Shown here: positions 7,054-14,558 of the stretch, in pieces | Numbering within the stretch: position 1 is the first letter of the stretch | How the letters are laid out: each line of letters starts with the position of its first letter | From: a virus | Direction: 5' to 3' (one strand) | DNA: 64,000 bases | Virus record (IMG/VR): IMGVR_UViG_3300025154_000049 | Coordinates: 1-64,000 of that record | Translations under genes and position numbers: made by a program | The notes under the pieces: model-generated | The model's input: the letters and a program-made list of their open reading frames with translations, nothing else | What the model was told of the DNA's origin: nothing | Databases searched by the model: none

Positions 7054-7736
7054 TATTGTATCTCCATATTTGGTGTTTGTAAAAACATAGACTGCATTTC
7101 ATCATAGTAGGGAAGTCTGGTAGGACTTAAAGTAACTGTAAGTTTAGTCCAATATGGCTGACCATCAGGAGTAAGGGTAGTGGAGTATTCTGGTCTAAAA
7201 CCTTTAATTAAAAGATTCATAGCTCTAAACCATTGACCTATAGTCAATATCACTGTTCCTTTTAATGGTTTCCTATTAATACCTATATTATTACCATATT
7301 GTGCTAAGTTGACTGGTTGGTACCCCCAATGATATTTAACAGCTACAGGAACTCCTAATACTGGAGAATTCTCTGGATAAATAGCTTGGTATAGTTTATT
7401 AACTATCTCTGTTGGTTTAATAGTACTGTTAGTTGCTATGATATAAAAGCTAAGATTGAATACAGGTATATTGGCTCCAGTCCACTGCTGAGTAGTGTCT
7501 AGGTGATTCAATATTTGAATGTCGCTTCCTAGCCTAGCTAACCATTGATTAGCTTTAGTAGAATATTCTCTTCCGAATAACTGGTCAGACCAGTTAGCTT
7601 CGTTTTGAAAATCAAAAGGTCCCTCAAGATACCCCAAAATAACATTACCTTGGTCTGGTTCTCCTCCAGTTTGTTTTGGTAGTATTAATTTTACCTTTAG
7701 TCTATCATCATTTATAACTCTATCGAAAATATTCAT
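7053..7736 (-). CDS. Baseplate tail-tube cap / initiator (gp48-like)
   Basis: Gene order; FNLSFY and DGQPYWTKLTVTL tube-fold motifs. Confidence 0.55.
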   Translation of the reverse strand: MNIFDRVINDDRLKVKLILPKQTGGEPDQGNVILGYLEGPFDFQNEANWSDQLFGREYSTKANQWLARLGSDIQILNHLDTTQQWTGANIPVFNLSFYIIATNSTIKPTEIVNKLYQAIYPENSPVLGVPVAVKYHWGYQPVNLAQYGNNIGINRKPLKGTVILTIGQWFRAMNLLIKGFRPEYSTTLTPDGQPYWTKLTVTLSPTRLPYYDEMQSMFLQTPNMEIQ

Positions 7737-9901
7737 TATGCTATATCCCCATAATCTATATGATGATTAAGTAATTCGTTGTCTGATTTTAATTTTCTAG
7801 TTGATTTATCTTTAGCTGGCTGAGGAATAGGTATCATCTGAGCTTTATTATCCGCTATATTTCCTACTGTCTGAGATATGGATTTTTGTTCTGGCATAGT
7901 AGCTACTTCGTTACCTATGTTTGAAAACTCGGCAGGATTTTTCACCCATTTATTTTGACCCCCTACATCGTAAGTTAATACGTCAGATGCGTTTAAGCTC
8001 TTCATCTCTCCTGTAGTTTTATTGGAGGCTAAAACTTTATAATTACCATCTTTATCCTGAGTTATGTTCTTAATATTGTATTTATTTTTAAAGTTATCGT
8101 AGTTAGTTGTATCTACTGCCTGTCCTTTATTAGATAATGCTAATTTTGTAGTATCCACGTTACTGGCATCCATCATAAATTTTTGTCTTTGCTCCCAAAT
8201 AGACGGACTAGCAGAGGATAATTTATCCCCCAATGAACTAACAGTACTTTTATTCTTTTGATAGGCTGGAATTACCTTTGTGGGGTCTATAGCTTTTCCA
8301 GAAGTATCCCTTACTTTATAATGTAGAACAGATTGACCCTTTCCTACTCCCACAACTCTACCAGTAGTCCCAGTCTCTCCTACAACCCCTCCAGTAGGTA
8401 CTATGTCTCCGAGTTTAACATTCTGTTTACTTAAGTGAGAAAAAGATTCAGTAGTTCCTTTGGGATTTTTAACAAAGACATAGTTACCTGAAAGTTTATC
8501 GCTTCCTATTTTTGTAACTTTCCCGCCCCCCAAAGATGATTTAACTGGACTTCCATAAGGCTGTGCTAAATCTAGGGCACCATGTATTCCATAGTCTCTA
8601 GGCGAACTAAAAGTATCTGTTATTTTTCCTTTAGTGGGTAATAGCCCTTTTAACCCCTTAAGAATTCCAGCACCCACTCCAGTATACTCACTTTGTACTT
8701 GAGCTGGGGTTTTGCCCTGTCTTTTAGCCATGGCATCTATTCCCTTACCAGCAGTATTAGTAGCATTACTTAGAGCTATTCCTCCTCCCACCACTAGAGC
8801 TCCTCCCGCTAAATAAGGAAGTAATGGAGCCAATGCTCCAGCAGCAGCGGTTAATTTAGGTAAATCTGTAGCTGGATTAAAATTCTTTACCATATCCCCA
8901 ACACCTTTACCCATCATTTCAGCAGAGGAGAAAACAGCGGGACTAGCTCCTCTTAACATTGGATTTTCAGCCATGCCTAAAGCAGCGGTTTTCCCTGTCA
9001 TTACTACTGCAAAATCTGCTAAATCAGCAGTAGTCTTTTTAAGCTCTCTAGCTAAATGTGATACTGCTCCCCCTTCATCTTTGCCTTTTCCTCCCTTGCC
9101 TCCAGTTTCCCCCTGTTCTTCCAGATAACCTTCTATCTTATCATTACTTCTTTGATTATCGGTTAATAGTCTAACTACCTCTTCTAAAGATACGTTAGCT
9201 TCTTTCAAATCAGTATCTAATTTCTTATAAGGGGCAAAGGTAGCAGTTTTAAATTCCTTCTCGTTTTCTGCATAATATTCTAAATTTTTATCTAGCTCCA
9301 TTAAAATATTTACAATCTTCTCATCATTAACTTTACCCGTCTTTAAAGTACTATCTAACAATCCTTTGAGTTCTTTGCTCAAAGCTAAATCCTCATCAGA
9401 ATAATCTCTGAGAAAACTAAACAGGTCTAATTTAAAATCATTACTAATCTTCTCATCTTTAACCATCTTCTTAAAATTAGTCAAGATATCTTTTATAGGC
9501 ACTCCTATCTGTTCTTGACTATCCGACAAAGCATCTTTCATAGTCTGTACAAATTTAGCTAGTTCTTTTTTCTCTTCTAACTGTAATCTCTGTCCAGATA
9601 CATATCTATCCATAGTTTTTTTAAAGTTACCGTCTATCTTAGTCATGAGGTCTATTAACTTTAAAAATCCCTTATCGTCATTAAGACTCTCTTCTCTTCC
9701 CTTTTTACTAGAAACTTTATCTTTATTGTAAGAATTCTCCAATAATTTATAATAGAGAACCATTTGTTTTATAAGTTTGTCTAATTTATCATTAGTGGCT
9801 TTCTCCCTTTGTTCCATGCCAGAAAACATCTTCGACATTGAAGATGTTAAATCCAAAAATGGATTATTCTTTATTGGTTCTTTTGGTTCGTTTAAAGCCA
9901 T
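7736..9901 (-). CDS. Tape measure protein with M23 peptidase domain
   Basis: Helical N-half, hydrophobic Ala/Gly segment, HGALD...H.S...LHY M23 motifs. Start moved to ATG 9901 (AGGA SD) from the track GTG 9940. Confidence 0.75.
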   Translation of the reverse strand: MALNEPKEPIKNNPFLDLTSSMSKMFSGMEQREKATNDKLDKLIKQMVLYYKLLENSYNKDKVSSKKGREESLNDDKGFLKLIDLMTKIDGNFKKTMDRYVSGQRLQLEEKKELAKFVQTMKDALSDSQEQIGVPIKDILTNFKKMVKDEKISNDFKLDLFSFLRDYSDEDLALSKELKGLLDSTLKTGKVNDEKIVNILMELDKNLEYYAENEKEFKTATFAPYKKLDTDLKEANVSLEEVVRLLTDNQRSNDKIEGYLEEQGETGGKGGKGKDEGGAVSHLARELKKTTADLADFAVVMTGKTAALGMAENPMLRGASPAVFSSAEMMGKGVGDMVKNFNPATDLPKLTAAAGALAPLLPYLAGGALVVGGGIALSNATNTAGKGIDAMAKRQGKTPAQVQSEYTGVGAGILKGLKGLLPTKGKITDTFSSPRDYGIHGALDLAQPYGSPVKSSLGGGKVTKIGSDKLSGNYVFVKNPKGTTESFSHLSKQNVKLGDIVPTGGVVGETGTTGRVVGVGKGQSVLHYKVRDTSGKAIDPTKVIPAYQKNKSTVSSLGDKLSSASPSIWEQRQKFMMDASNVDTTKLALSNKGQAVDTTNYDNFKNKYNIKNITQDKDGNYKVLASNKTTGEMKSLNASDVLTYDVGGQNKWVKNPAEFSNIGNEVATMPEQKSISQTVGNIADNKAQMIPIPQPAKDKSTRKLKSDNELLNHHIDYGDIA

Positions 9902-9906
9902 GATTC

Positions 9907-10047
9907 CTATTTCTTTTTCTCTTTTATTAAGGATTCCCACATATATAATATTTCTGAATAAGGTATATCCATAATATTTACAATATCTGCTACTTCATTT
10001 CTAGCCAAATGATATTTCATTTCTAATATCATATTCCTGTCCACGAA
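9907..10047 (-). CDS. Overlapping +1-frame ORF (46 aa); probable frameshift extension of the gp26-like chaperone (gp51/GT-like)
   Basis: Not in the track: FVDRNMILEMKYHLARNEVADIVNIMDIPYSEILYMWESLIKEKKK*, entered at CCC TTT CGT; fills the gap to the tape measure gene. Confidence 0.65.
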   Translation of the reverse strand, partial: FVDRNMILEMKYHLARNEVADIVNIMDIPYSEILYMWESLIKEKKK

Positions 10048-10726
10048 AGGGTCTGGTTATTTCTGCCTCCGCATAATTCGCAGGATTAACAAGATATTCA
10101 AAATGACAATCAGAACATTTGAATGGTATCTTAGATAATCCATGATAAAGTAATTTATTGATATATTCTACTTTTTCTACATCATCTCCTACTAGGCTAT
10201 ATATTAAGTTATAGGCTTCTCCCGAAGGTAAGTTATCCACGTGTTTAGCAAAAACATATATGACATCTCTTATTTTATCTAACTTTAATATCTCCAAGTA
10301 ATCCCTAATAGTTAAAAATTTAAAAGAAACTTCTGTTTCTTTAATTCTAATTCTTATAGGCATCTTAGGAATCTCAGTATCCTCAAAATCCATATCTTTT
10401 AATTCTAGGGTTCTCGAGTTTTTTAAATCACAGTTAGGACAGAAAGCTTGCATTTGAAACAAAGGAGTTCCAAGACTTGCTATCTTTCTTAACCATCCAA
10501 TATAAACAACATCATAGAAAGTTAATTCATATTTATCCATTCCAGTAGCCCTTACACCCTGTAAAAGATATTCATATAATTGTACAGCATCCATATTAGA
10601 GTTATTTATCTTTTGTAAATCTCCCAATGTATAAGGATTATAATAAATCCTAGTAGCTTCTGGGTAAGATAGTTTTTTAGAAGGTAGATTCTTAATCTCC
10701 ACTTCTGGTAAAAATTTGTTTTCCAT
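10001..10726 (-). CDS. Baseplate hub assembly / tail assembly chaperone (T4 gp26-like)
   Basis: LPSKKLSYP, LRKIASLG, CPNC and CSDC zinc pairs, FKFLTIRD; lies between tube and tape measure genes. Confidence 0.75.
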   Translation of the reverse strand: MENKFLPEVEIKNLPSKKLSYPEATRIYYNPYTLGDLQKINNSNMDAVQLYEYLLQGVRATGMDKYELTFYDVVYIGWLRKIASLGTPLFQMQAFCPNCDLKNSRTLELKDMDFEDTEIPKMPIRIRIKETEVSFKFLTIRDYLEILKLDKIRDVIYVFAKHVDNLPSGEAYNLIYSLVGDDVEKVEYINKLLYHGLSKIPFKCSDCHFEYLVNPANYAEAEITRPFRGQEYDIRNEISFG

Positions 10727-10742
10727 CCAACAACCTCTCCTG

Positions 10743-11411
10743 TTATCCTAAATAATCAATTACTAAAAAATTAACTGTTAATTCTCTAGCAGAGGAATCC
10801 CGAGAGGACATTTCTACTTTAACATCCCCCCTAGGAATTACTTTATATTTAGTTTCTAATACGATATTTCTCTCAAAATTTAATTTATACACAGATAAAT
10901 CTCGATAGGAATCTTCTAAATAGTTACAAGTAACTCCATCATGCACCTCTAAAAACCAAGCACGTAATGATTTTTCTATTATACATTCTTCTGTATCATA
11001 TATTGTCATACTTATTTCTGGTATACCTTTTTGAGAAGGTATCCTGAAATTATTATAGTTTGGTAATGCTATATCTTGGGTAACTATCTCTGGTAAGTTT
11101 TCTGTAACGGTACTAGCGGGAATGATGTAATTATCCAAAGGACTATTTATACCCCCCTGAAGTCTTACCATGAATAGATATTTAGCTCCCCAAGTAATAT
11201 CGAAAACGGTGGATAAATCGTCCCTCGAAGAATTATTAACAACTCCAGAAGAAAGAAGTCTTTGAATATCGCCTACCTTATCTGACAATGCTCCTAGAGA
11301 GGATATCTTACCTAAGCTATCCTTAGCATTTTGAATTCCTTCTTTAGCTACAGAATCCGCTGTCTGAGATATCGCTCCAGTTAATAATTTAGGAGTGTAT
11401 TTATCAACCAT
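10743..11411 (-). CDS. Tail tube paralogue / tube initiator (gp54-like)
   Basis: gp19-fold motifs ISMTIYD..LRAW, ELTVNF; late promoter at 11437-11447. Confidence 0.6.
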   Translation of the reverse strand: MVDKYTPKLLTGAISQTADSVAKEGIQNAKDSLGKISSLGALSDKVGDIQRLLSSGVVNNSSRDDLSTVFDITWGAKYLFMVRLQGGINSPLDNYIIPASTVTENLPEIVTQDIALPNYNNFRIPSQKGIPEISMTIYDTEECIIEKSLRAWFLEVHDGVTCNYLEDSYRDLSVYKLNFERNIVLETKYKVIPRGDVKVEMSSRDSSARELTVNFLVIDYLG

Positions 11412-11943: not shown

Positions 11944-12480
11944 TTATACCTTTTGTCCATCTGCCAAGAAATAATCGAATCTCAAAGTTATTTCTGGGTT
12001 TATTGTAGCATTAGAATCTCCCGCAGGGCTTCCTATGGTATGAGACTGCATCCAGCAATTTTTAAGAGTATACTCAAATATCTTAGCATTTTCACTGGCT
12101 AGAGGTCTTAATACTATAGTAGGACAAATATACTCAGGTTTTCTTTTTTGGGTACCTGCCCCTGGTTTCCAAAGTAACTCTCCCCAGTCTCTGATAAATC
12201 TTTCAATGATACCATTATCACTTTCAACAAATGTTAAAGTGATGGGGTCATACGTCCTTAATCCTGCTTGGTATACTTTGTGTCCATGAATACCAACCTC
12301 TATTTCTTCATTAGAAAATTTAGGGTATTCTGAAGAAAGAGCACGAGCGTTCAAAGAATCGCTGTTGTAATTTCCAGCATTAGCTATAGCCGATGGAAGG
12401 GTAGGTATAATAACTTCCCATCTATACAGAACAGCAAAATCCTGATTGTTGATGATTTGAATTATGTCTGGTCTAGTCAT
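11944..12480 (-). CDS. gp19: Tail tube protein (T4 gp19-like)
   Basis: YPKFSNEEIEV..KVYQAG..YDPITLTFVE..YTLKNCW..ITLRFDY. Confidence 0.9.
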   Translation of the reverse strand: MTRPDIIQIINNQDFAVLYRWEVIIPTLPSAIANAGNYNSDSLNARALSSEYPKFSNEEIEVGIHGHKVYQAGLRTYDPITLTFVESDNGIIERFIRDWGELLWKPGAGTQKRKPEYICPTIVLRPLASENAKIFEYTLKNCWMQSHTIGSPAGDSNATINPEITLRFDYFLADGQKV

Positions 12481-12500: not shown

Positions 12501-14558
12501 TTATCCTAGTAAGTTCTGAGCTAAATTTAAGTCAAATCCAGTTCTTGTGATAACCACTGACAGTGTAATAAATTCTGCTGTTTTAGTTGGTTGCACAAAT
12601 AACCAGACGTTCATTATGTTATTGTCTATATCGGCTGGAGTATTGTTTGTTTCATCACAAACAACTTTATAATCATAGACACCTTTTCTGGATTTTATGT
12701 TATCCATATAAGATTCCATACCTGTTCTTATTAATAATCTTGTGAAGTCGTCATTAAATTCAAACAGATAATCTTCTAAGAAAGCTGCTAAAGCTGGTTC
12801 TATGGTTATTAAAAGTAATCTCACGTTCAATCTATCTAGTGCTGAAGGTCTAGCAGATAATGTTTTTTGACCCCAGATAGCTATCCCTTTTCCCACAGAA
12901 AATTTAATAGGGTTAATTCCTGAATCATAGAGTAAATCCAATTCCCCTTCAGTAAATCTTCTTTTGGTGTCAAGTACATTAATCATACCTCTTTTGAAAC
13001 CTGCTGGAGCGAACCATATTTCGTAATTTGAAGAGGTATCTGATATAGCTGCTGCTGCGTATCCGTCAGGTGCCACGAATATATCTCTATCATTAAACCT
13101 GTCTCTAATTTTAACGTGGGGTGAGTATAGAGCAGAGTATGAAGAATTCAGGTTAAGAGTGGTTTTTCTATAAGTAACTATGTCCGTCATATAGTTACTT
13201 GAATCTTCAGTATAATATGGAGTAGACAATATACCAACACAGTCTTTTCTGCTTTGGCACAAACTATCTATAGCTTGTTGATATGCTACGGTAGCCCATC
13301 CTCCGTCCATTATTACTGTTAAAGGTATCTCTGCTTTGTTATTCAATGTATTAAGAGCACTAATCATATTAGTATCAGTTACTGATAATCCGTCTAATGC
13401 TCCAGTTAATGTCAAGAAGGTAGTTTGTTCTTTTATAGTCTCAGTACTGACAAGAGAAGTATTATCTATTGCCCTAATATAACTAGAACCTAATAGAACA
13501 TCTTCTATGTAGATGTTTTTACCATATCCATCTTTAGCATTTACATCTCTCGAACATGTAAATACCTCTAAAGTTTCTCCAGTAGATTGTTTATACACTT
13601 GAATCTGAAACGCATCTGGTTCTTTTACAACGTCTGGACTATTAGCATAAGTAAATAATTTTATCTCAATATCATTAGCCCAAGAACCTTGATTAGCTCC
13701 TGTTATAAGGAATAAGTCATCTGATTGAAATTCATAAGTTTGTGGATTTACTAAACTGTTTCTAAAAATGGTACCGTCTACTACGTTACTAGCTAATGTT
13801 TCGGATACTACAACTTCTGTATCTCCTGCTACTAAAGTAGCACTTACTACTGTATAAACTCCATCATTTCCCGTAGAGCCTTGAACTCCTATTTTATCTC
13901 CAACATGACAAAAAGATGTTAAATCTGTAGCCATTGTGAATTTTTTGTTAGGTTGGTCTACTGCTGTAATAGCTCCTATCTCAACATCAGTTAATTGGAT
14001 GTTGGTATTAATAGTAGATACCTCTTTGTATATGCTACCGTCTGCTGTAGCATCGGGAACAACTTCGGATACTACAACTTCTGTATCTCCTGCTACTAAA
14101 GTAGCACTTACTACTGTATAAACTCCGTCATTTCCAGTAGAGCCTTGAACATTTATAGAAGTAACTCCTGTAAAGGAAGCTGTTAAATCTCCAGTTAATG
14201 TGAATTTTTTGTTAGGTTGGTCTACTGCTGTGATAGCTCCTATTAGAGTATTAACTAATATAGGAGTTTTTCTCACAACTAAACCACCGTATGTGGAACC
14301 ATTATCGGCTCTTACAACCCATAATCTATTAGCTTTTGATAAATAGGCTAAGGCAGAATAAAAAGCCATATTATATCCCACTTCTACTCTTTGATTAGGA
14401 GTAAAATAGTTTAATAAGTCTGTATCCGAAGTTACAAATATAGGCTTATTAATATCACCTTTTGGTGCTGGGATAGCTATAGCTGCATAAGTTCCTAAGG
14501 AACTTGGAACTCTTGTAGAGATATCAATCTCTTTTACATTTATGCGAGGTGCTGTCAT
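12501..14558 (-). CDS. gp18: Tail sheath protein (T4 gp18-like) with a tandemly duplicated insert
   Basis: PRINVKEIDIS, WFAPAGFKRG, WGQKTL..ALDRLNVRLL, FEFNDDFTR, DYKVVCDETNNTP. Confidence 0.95.
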   Translation of the reverse strand: MTAPRINVKEIDISTRVPSSLGTYAAIAIPAPKGDINKPIFVTSDTDLLNYFTPNQRVEVGYNMAFYSALAYLSKANRLWVVRADNGSTYGGLVVRKTPILVNTLIGAITAVDQPNKKFTLTGDLTASFTGVTSINVQGSTGNDGVYTVVSATLVAGDTEVVVSEVVPDATADGSIYKEVSTINTNIQLTDVEIGAITAVDQPNKKFTMATDLTSFCHVGDKIGVQGSTGNDGVYTVVSATLVAGDTEVVVSETLASNVVDGTIFRNSLVNPQTYEFQSDDLFLITGANQGSWANDIEIKLFTYANSPDVVKEPDAFQIQVYKQSTGETLEVFTCSRDVNAKDGYGKNIYIEDVLLGSSYIRAIDNTSLVSTETIKEQTTFLTLTGALDGLSVTDTNMISALNTLNNKAEIPLTVIMDGGWATVAYQQAIDSLCQSRKDCVGILSTPYYTEDSSNYMTDIVTYRKTTLNLNSSYSALYSPHVKIRDRFNDRDIFVAPDGYAAAAISDTSSNYEIWFAPAGFKRGMINVLDTKRRFTEGELDLLYDSGINPIKFSVGKGIAIWGQKTLSARPSALDRLNVRLLLITIEPALAAFLEDYLFEFNDDFTRLLIRTGMESYMDNIKSRKGVYDYKVVCDETNNTPADIDNNIMNVWLFVQPTKTAEFITLSVVITRTGFDLNLAQNLLG
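13800..14242. repeat. Near-identical tandem duplication (264-bp period) inside the sheath gene
   Basis: 13800-13885 matches 14064-14149 and 13935-13978 matches 14199-14242 with only a few substitutions. Confidence 0.9.

Follow-up and report, generated by a model that had tools for sequence, protein, structure and literature searches.

Can a single phage gene supply both the short and the long form of a tail assembly chaperone by letting some of its ribosomes change frame near the end of the message? The question is raised by a minus-strand gene in a 64,000-nucleotide (nt) stretch of viral DNA, referred to here as the window, which makes up the first 64 kilobases (kb) of the 158.5-kb IMG/VR virus record IMGVR_UViG_3300025154_000049 (31.6% G+C; estimated to be ~83% complete). 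The gene encodes a protein of 241 amino acids (aa) that resembles gp26 of phage T4, and close to its 3′ end it carries the nine-base sequence CCC TTT CGT, from which a second frame is open. From the comparison of sequences presented below, we consider it highly probable that this is a programmed +1 ribosomal frameshift site in a single gene of the gp26/gp51 type.

Frameshifting in tail assembly chaperone genes is a conserved event, as in lambda gpG/gpGT (Levin 1993; Xu, Hendrix & Duda 2004; reviewed in PMC5009743). T4 gp26 and gp51 are hub assembly chaperones, which Vladimirov, Gautam & Davidson (2022, Virology 566:9; as summarised in PMC10274946) identify as the tail assembly chaperones of T4-like phages; according to that summary, they proposed a short gene together with a longer fused gene in place of frameshifting.

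Anatomy of the putative shift site

The anatomy of the site can be read directly from the letters. Counted from the start codon, (10726-10051)/3 = 225, so that the site is in frame, with CCC at 10051-10049, TTT at 10048-10046 and CGT at 10045-10043; a sequence-only reading of the window, made before this analysis, had placed it correctly at codons 226-228. Omission of C10045 gives GTG GAC AGG and onwards, which translates as VDRNMILEMKYHLARNEVADIVNIMDIPYSEILYMWESLIKEKKK and is closed by the TAG at 9909-9907. This +1 frame has 45 codons, its opening residues being VDRNMILEMKYHLARN, and the predicted products are a short form of 241 aa and a long form of 227+45 = 272 aa. The TAG of the extension lies 6 nt before the ATG of the next gene (9901-9899) and is overlapped by an AGGA at 9908-9905, in the ribosome-binding region of that gene. 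The open +1 frame, the overlap of its stop with the Shine-Dalgarno (SD) sequence of the tape-measure gene and the two product lengths had all been predicted by the sequence-only reading and are as it described. Among relatives the arrangement is equally tight, since in most lineages the next gene starts 0-15 nt from the stop of the extension or overlaps it.

A +1-frame stop four codons upstream of the junction limits entry into the extension to a few codons in the window, and 10 lineages have such a stop 3-4 codons upstream of the site. Further upstream, 17-24 nt before the TTT, many lineages carry a G-rich GGNGG element (GGAGG in the window, 10065-10075). We considered this element as an SD stimulator of the kind found in prfB and rejected it, as it encodes a conserved D-G-G and its spacing is too long.

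Conservation of the site across divergent phages

A blastn search of the locus against phage records gave no DNA-level relatives. With tblastn the gene was located in 27 phage records at 22-34% identity, including Rhizobium Kleczkowskaviridae, several Vibrio phages, E. coli EP_H11 and IME392, Acinetobacter Ab1-TPeters, nine Pseudomonas putida phages and Thermus phiLo. A further ~25 loci came from pattern scans of IMG/VR and JGI metagenomes, and phmmer against 1.84 billion representatives returned 515 clusters at E<=1e-3. In two broad alignments (A1 and A2) the sequences had diverged too far for pattern scanning. The codon counts below are taken from 26 genes of phage records and metagenomes, aligned by codon and each less than 80% identical to the others; relatives outside the window's own clade show 22-44% identity.

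The junction Phe codon is TTT in 25 of 25 aligned lineages; the 26th, L017, reads TTT TTT CGT, and TTT is also present in two further lineages that lie beyond the codon alignment. Two control Phe columns in the same genes hold 10 TTT and 11 TTC, and 14 TTT and 9 TTC. Compared with this pooled control (24 TTT/20 TTC), the invariance of the junction codon has a nominal Fisher P=1.5e-5, and multiplying the TTT fractions of the individual genes gives 10^-7.45. TTT is kept at the site despite a preference for TTC elsewhere in L022 (15% TTT), Pseudomonas Peetri (18%), Thermus phiLo (25%) and L050 (15%), the last three of which are GC-rich members of the family.

The codons on either side of the Phe codon are restricted as well. 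The junction Arg codon is CGT in 21 and CGC in 4 of 25 lineages, so that CGY (Y, pyrimidine) accounts for 25/25 at the site as against 9/26 at a control Arg column (position 80), in which all six codons occur (AGA 9, CGC 5, CGA 5, CGT 4, CGG 2, AGG 1). The preceding Pro codon is CCC in 18 of 26 lineages, the others having CCG (5), CCT (2) or CCA (1), whereas CCC makes up 21% of the codons at six control Pro columns (P=2e-7); Escherichia phages EP_H11 and vB_EcoM_IME392 have CCG_TTT_CGT. Over the 26 lineages each position of T-T-T-C-G carries 2.0 bits, compared with 0.0-0.5 bits at upstream third positions, and the control columns indicate that synonymous positions are otherwise randomised. Neither TTC nor AGR, whose free use by homologues would have spoken against the sequence-only reading, occurs at the site in these lineages or, for TTC, in the two beyond the alignment.

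Protein variants extend the picture. In a set of 149 representative proteins, 123 have PFR as the junction tripeptide, 5 PFH, 3 PFC, 2 PFL, 2 PLR and 1 KFR, and each residue found after Phe can be encoded by a codon with a pyrimidine as its first base, a pattern that appears to fit the bacterial UUU_Y rule (PMC5009743). Scans of viral contigs and genome contigs yielded no DNA for the PFH, PFC, PFL and PLR variants. The closest relative whose junction differs, a protein from an ENA contig (P0005) that shares 59% identity with the window protein, carries PFC where most others have PFR; its codons are presumably TTT TGY, which would give UUU_U, a perfect re-pairing site.

Two loci with unusual sites help to define what is required. 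Vibrio phage Va2 (L028:3110-3440, MW073017) reads GTG TTT CCC TAT, with the order of Phe and Pro reversed, followed by an 80-codon +1 open reading frame (ORF); a +1-frame TAG two codons upstream of its junction leaves only UUU_C or CCC_U as the point of entry. At L055:1860-2110 (IMGVR_UViG_3300026484_000157) the site is CCC TTT CAA (Pro-Phe-Gln), before a 56-codon +1 ORF with the usual DYGE motif, which means that CGY is not obligatory. We regard CGY as largely a by-product of three demands, for a C after UUU, for Arg in frame 0 and for Val or Ala (GTN/GCN) in frame +1. The UUU_CGN motif named in the sequence-only reading is therefore retained in part: TTT_CGY is indeed conserved, but the invariant core is better written as CCC_UUU_C.

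Coding in both frames and the absence of an independent start

In every lineage the +1 ORF runs open for 44-74 codons and can be aligned. Stops are frequent in the +1 frame of these genes (361 in 5400 codons, or 6.7%; one per ~15 codons), which gives 45 open codons a chance P~0.04 per lineage; the frame is open in 27/27 lineages tested, for a joint P~10^-36. Its translation aligns as V/A-x3-(S/N)-L-(L/F) ... LA ... D(Y/F)-x-E(V). Directly after the site the best-conserved nucleotides are zero-frame third positions, which are second positions of the +1 frame (1.53, 1.23 and 1.30 bits at +20, +26 and +29), and the zero-frame residues at these points are variable. Conservation of the zero frame returns at its last residues, R(I/V)xFG, where TTTGGC is fixed because both frames code there, for F-G in frame 0 and for L-A in frame +1. 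The zero-frame tail itself takes the form PFR-x11-FG in 100/150 representatives; the 150 best representatives all end in this short tail or a variant of it, and PFV read-through is found in 0 of them. The conservation of the +1 ORF on which the sequence-only reading depended is thus conservation as a protein, without a conserved start of its own.

This last point bears on the best-surviving alternative, namely that the 45 codons form a small gene of their own, started at GTG 10044, ATG 10032 or ATG 10020, or by translational coupling, and producing a separate protein of ~4-5 kilodaltons. Start-type codons do exist in the window's ORF, many lineages have a TTG (the Leu of the LA motif) at codon 13, and GenBank annotators call such ORFs separate hypothetical proteins, as in RHph_TM39 and in Vibrio phages 150E35-1, 1.031.O and GR11A. 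None of the public records that we opened contains a joined coding sequence (CDS), the extension being either a separate 'hypothetical protein' or unannotated. Yet no start codon or SD sequence for the +1 ORF is conserved among the lineages, and almost no candidate start has an SD match; in the window, no match is found 4-16 nt upstream of the internal ATGs at 10032 and 10020, which the earlier reading had described as having poorly spaced SDs. The +1 frame opens with GTG in the window and with GTC, GTA or GCN elsewhere, while the residue stays Val or Ala, and where the window's clade has an ATG at codon 9, other lineages have codons for Ile, Val or Leu. No ATG, GTG or TTG precedes codon 19 in Acinetobacter Ab1-TPeters (L021) or codon 42 in Thermus phiLo (L024). 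Selection on the +1 frame is already visible at or before codon 6, which most candidate starts lie downstream of. A separate gene would also leave the invariant third base of TTT and the preference for CCC unexplained, and the long form of T4, gp51, is one polypeptide. We therefore judge an independent gene to be unlikely.

Less likely by some distance is an origin at the level of RNA, in which polymerase slippage or another change of the transcript at the T-run would put the extension in frame. Slippage is conceivable in view of the GTTTTT motif in other chaperone genes (PMC12846349), and the title of Vladimirov 2022 points to routes other than frameshifting in T4-like phages. The run here, however, consists of just three T's between C's, and the conserved UUU-then-C with its preceding CCC fits re-pairing by transfer RNA (tRNA) and not run length. 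Productive polymerase slippage needs runs of about six or more. That there is no recoding at all, the +1 ORF being a chance or relic frame or the result of an assembly indel in one continuous frame, is barely credible given that the two-frame layout is present in 27/27 lineages with DNA and conserved in both frames, and that the metagenomic relative reading through in a single frame (L018), which would favour it, does so because an A-run lacks one base.

The base in question is missing from an AAAA run ~20 codons upstream of CCCTTTCGT at L018:3060-3294, on the contig that also holds L051 (IMGVR_UViG_3300004583_000005). As a candidate natural in-frame fusion L018 was rejected, since its true zero frame (...IDEPGVLVSPFRG...RFG*) survives unbroken in another frame, into which one extra A in the run would lead. 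The single frame is probably a homopolymer sequencing error.

Relationship of the two predicted forms to T4 gp26 and gp51

The 241-aa protein belongs to PF12322 (T4_baseplate), scoring 26.1 bits against a cut-off of 24.5, with residues 7-210 aligned to model positions 2-206 of 219; it also matches phrog_150 (baseplate hub). T4 gp26 (208 aa, 215.6 bits) and gp51 (249 aa, 177.5 bits) each span the whole PF12322 model, and gp51 carries ~48 additional C-terminal residues, annotated as PF28602 in the protein collection. A six-frame search of the window's genome record found a single PF12322 gene (25.2 bits). The kinship with gp26 and gp51 that the sequence-only reading had suggested is accordingly borne out by the family match, with the short and long proteins encoded by separate genes in T4 and by one gene in the window's record. 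Matches in BFVD are phage 'baseplate hub assembly' proteins of many myoviruses and jumbo phages.

For the N-terminal part (model residues 1-83), the best PDB match in VIA-align was the HK97 tail assembly chaperone 2ob9, with 71 residues aligned at a root-mean-square deviation of 3.9 and a Z of 5.1, which is below the level at which the tool is trustworthy; 3fgx, 3klu (YqbN) and 5ir0 followed at ranks 3, 4 and 9, likewise with Z values below that level. The prophage proteins at ranks 3-4, YqbN and rbstp2171, are ones we take to be tail-chaperone-like. Foldseek against the PDB returned no match. The resemblance to the HK97 chaperone fold, as modelled, is suggestive, not decisive.

Models of the long form were built with AlphaFold2 from alignment A4, because MAFFT had misplaced the N-terminal parts in A5; the last ~9 residues of the N-terminal part are misaligned in A4. 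The predicted local distance difference test (pLDDT) score was 91.8 for the read-through relative L018, in whose model ~19 linker residues of low pLDDT are out of frame, and 91.3 for a gp51 homologue. The extension is predicted to form a three-helix module (pLDDT 86-93), with helices of 13/4/15 residues compared with 14/6/16 in the tail of the gp51 homologue, and in both models this long-short-long module follows the C-terminal Cys-pair hairpin. A profile of 27 fused products is colinear with the whole gp51 family, tail included (probability 94.4). An equivalence of the 45-aa extension with the C-terminal tail of gp51 has the support of position, length and predicted helix pattern, and not of sequence statistics.

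Proposed mechanism

We envision that the majority of ribosomes would read CCC UUU CGU and continue to the UAG at 10003-10001, giving the 241-aa short form. In a minority, the P-site peptidyl-tRNA-Phe (anticodon GAA) would re-pair from UUU one base forward onto UUC, a step in which a G34:U wobble would be replaced by the better G34:C pair. The A site would then hold GUG, and 45 codons more would be translated up to the UAG at 9909-9907, yielding a 272-aa long form that would consist of the shared first 227 residues and a small helical C-terminal module. The tRNA-Pro on the upstream CCC could re-pair too, from CCC to CCU, as no other Pro codon would allow, which may account for the enrichment of CCC; since 8/26 lineages have CCG, CCT or CCA, this codon is not essential. 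By analogy with lambda G/GT, the shared N-terminal part would coat the tape-measure-like protein and the C-terminal module would recruit tube or hub subunits, the ratio of the two forms being set by the efficiency of the shift.

In the window's phage genome, CGT occurs at 2.1 per 1000 codons (6% of Arg codons), and the 15 ordinary tRNAs that ARAGORN finds in the genome record, none of them within the window, include Phe(GAA) and Pro(UGG) and no tRNA-Arg. A pause at the A site is therefore plausible in this phage. A phage tRNA reading four bases was considered and rejected, as none of the 15 tRNAs has an odd anticodon loop. Fourteen of the tRNA genes, including Phe(GAA) and Pro(UGG), form a cluster at 123791-124912 of the genome record, and ARAGORN also reports a doubtful permuted transfer-messenger RNA that overlaps tRNA-Ala.

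Several observations weigh against the frameshift reading or limit it. That ribosomes slip here, how efficiently they do so and what each form does are what we infer from sequence, and the P values given above overstate independence because the lineages are related by descent. At 83% completeness, the genome record leaves room for a second PF12322 member. When the extension alone is aligned to the gp51 tail with hhalign the probability is 0.2, and fusing the extension to the short form brings no gain in score. Relatives use CGT and CGC commonly (108/266 Arg codons), so that a hungry A-site codon is not a general driver of the shift. A downstream RNA stimulator was not found, the 171 nt after the site folding no better than shuffled sequence (z=0.27), nor is there an SD-like sequence at the 3-nt spacing that stimulates prfB. 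Because no stimulator was found, we would expect a low shift efficiency, which would suit a chaperone pair made at unequal levels.

Comparison with known recoding systems

The likeness to lambda G/GT lies in the layout. In both, the gene is downstream of the tube genes and immediately upstream of the tape-measure gene, two N-terminally identical products are made or predicted, the site is conserved, and the second ORF has no start of its own and ends at the tape-measure start. Lambda, however, shifts by -1 on an X_XXY_YYZ heptamer (e.g. G_GGA_AAG), whereas the window's gene would shift by +1 at CCC_UUU_CGY; and lambda gpG has ~140 residues, in contrast to the ~230 residues, PF12322 membership and Cys-pair motifs of the window protein. 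T4 gp26 and gp51 share the Pfam family and, like the two forms predicted here, differ by a helical C-terminal tail of ~45-48 residues, but they come from two divergently transcribed genes with no recoding, and the end of T4 gene 26 has neither a PFR site nor an open +1 frame. A -1 frameshift at GTTTTT has been proposed in the chaperone genes of Vandenendeviridae and Andersonviridae (PMC12846349). Compared by description, those genes resemble the present one in being myovirus chaperone genes that precede the tape measure and in having a downstream ORF, labelled 'hypothetical' or left unannotated, as the C-terminal part of the long form, and differ in slipping by -1 on a T-run as opposed to +1 at CCC_UUU_C.

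In the site itself, the closest parallels are UCC_UUU_CGU of influenza A PA-X (PMC3498833) and UUU_CGN of amalgaviruses, which share with it the UUU_CGU core and the +1 slip of tRNA-Phe onto UUC that is proposed here. PA-X also has no known downstream stimulator and an extension of similar size (41-61 aa). It differs in being made by eukaryotic ribosomes with a CGU that is rare in the host, in having an unrelated function, and in the preceding codon, which is UCC there and CCC in the window; replacement of UCC by CCC lowered PA-X shifting by 40-70% (PMC5009743). The sequence-only reading had called the signal one best known from eukaryotic viruses, a description that needs correcting in that UUU_Y (UUU_Ynn) is a +1-prone site in bacteria too, for example in the Yersinia YopN-TyeA fusion (PMC5009743). 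Like those sites, ours would involve bacterial ribosomes, a UUU_Y slippery tetranucleotide and the fusion of two adjacent ORFs, which there takes place at a low level. Unlike them, which are single genes or incidental errors, it is fixed across more than 500 protein clusters from phages of several bacterial phyla. The chaperone gene of the archaeal myovirus HSTV-2 uses a +1 frameshift (PMC5009743). In HSTV-2, +1 recoding gives a C-terminally extended assembly protein, as it would here, with a different site and protein family. The same is true of Listeria phage PSA, in whose capsid and tail genes a +1 frameshift occurs at Pro codons next to a stop. Bacteria offer few well-supported cases of programmed +1 frameshifting, of which prfB is the textbook example.

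Full-text literature searches found the nine-base motif only in papers on eukaryotic viruses and in unrelated ones, and found no report of the site under +1 frameshifting in tail assembly chaperones or under PF12322, with the proviso that Vladimirov 2022 may mention frameshifting relatives. The site is a variant of the well-known chaperone frameshift, and what sets it apart is its extreme conservation, the absence of stimulators and the identity of its core with that of PA-X. We lean, by a narrow margin, to a broader view in which CCC_UUU_C(GY) is a self-sufficient +1 cassette with the PA-X core that would work on ribosomes from several bacterial phyla with no need of a stop codon, an SD stimulator or RNA structure, and which would have been long fixed in one gp26/gp51 branch, while sister branches use -1 slips on U-runs or, as in T4, gene duplication.

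Genomic setting

The minus-strand gene order in the window runs from the sheath gene through the tube gene, a 124-aa gene and a 222-aa gene to the chaperone gene and the tape-measure-like M23 protein (Table 1). The records of the Rhizobium, Vibrio, E. coli and Acinetobacter phages show the same order. Thermus phiLo departs from it: its chaperone gene (L024:2474-3220, MH673673, phiLo_126), labelled 'DNA methylase', is not directly followed by a tape-measure gene, and it keeps CCG TTT CGT and a 65-codon +1 ORF. In the window's tape-measure-position protein the M23 peptidase domain covers residues 439-540. Relatives of this protein are annotated as endolysin, glycoside hydrolase or transglycosylase, a variety which suggests that the cell-wall enzyme at this position is exchanged between lineages.

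Table 1. Features of the tail gene region, in window coordinates
Feature	Coordinates	Strand	Details
Tail sheath gene	12501..14558	-	phrog_23, E=3.5e-82; PF17482 and PF04984
Tail tube gene	11944..12480	-	phrog_45 tail tube, E=1e-14
124-aa gene between the tube gene and the 222-aa gene	11847-11473	-	ORF list
222-aa gene between tube and chaperone genes	10743..11411	-	Weak tube-like match, phrog_1842 tail tube protein, E=8.6e-4
gp26-like tail assembly chaperone, zero-frame CDS (short form)	10001..10726	-	ATG start; stop TAG 10003-10001; 241 aa
Putative shift site CCC_UUU_CGU, codons 226-228	10043..10051	-	C10045 would be the skipped base
+1-frame extension	9907..10044	-	45 codons, GTG 10044 to AAA 9910, then TAG 9909-9907
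Dual-coding overlap	10001..10044	-	Zero frame ...RGQEYDIRNEISFG*; +1 frame VDRNMILEMKYHLA...
Tape-measure-position gene	7736..9901	-	721 aa from ATG 9901; internal M23 peptidase, PF01551 E=1.9e-15 and PHROG peptidase matches

Implications

Chaperone frameshifting is among the most conserved viral recoding events, with T4-type myoviruses regarded as the exception. The present comparison argues that recoding does take place in a large branch of the gp26/gp51 family, in the +1 direction and with a nine-base site kept from Thermus phages to AT-rich uncultured phages, so that one gene would do what T4 does with genes 26 and 51. Public annotations, in which the extension is a separate hypothetical protein or is missing, could be corrected. 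For research on translation, the locus offers a candidate +1 site with no evident stimulator and a core common to influenza PA-X. For phage assembly, it leads to the prediction that, as with lambda G and GT, the ratio of short to long forms is important in chaperones of the gp26/gp51 type. If the site is indeed a self-sufficient cassette, the family would constitute a natural experiment in interchangeable recoding, and the cassette would be a portable, host-independent tool for setting the ratio of two proteins.

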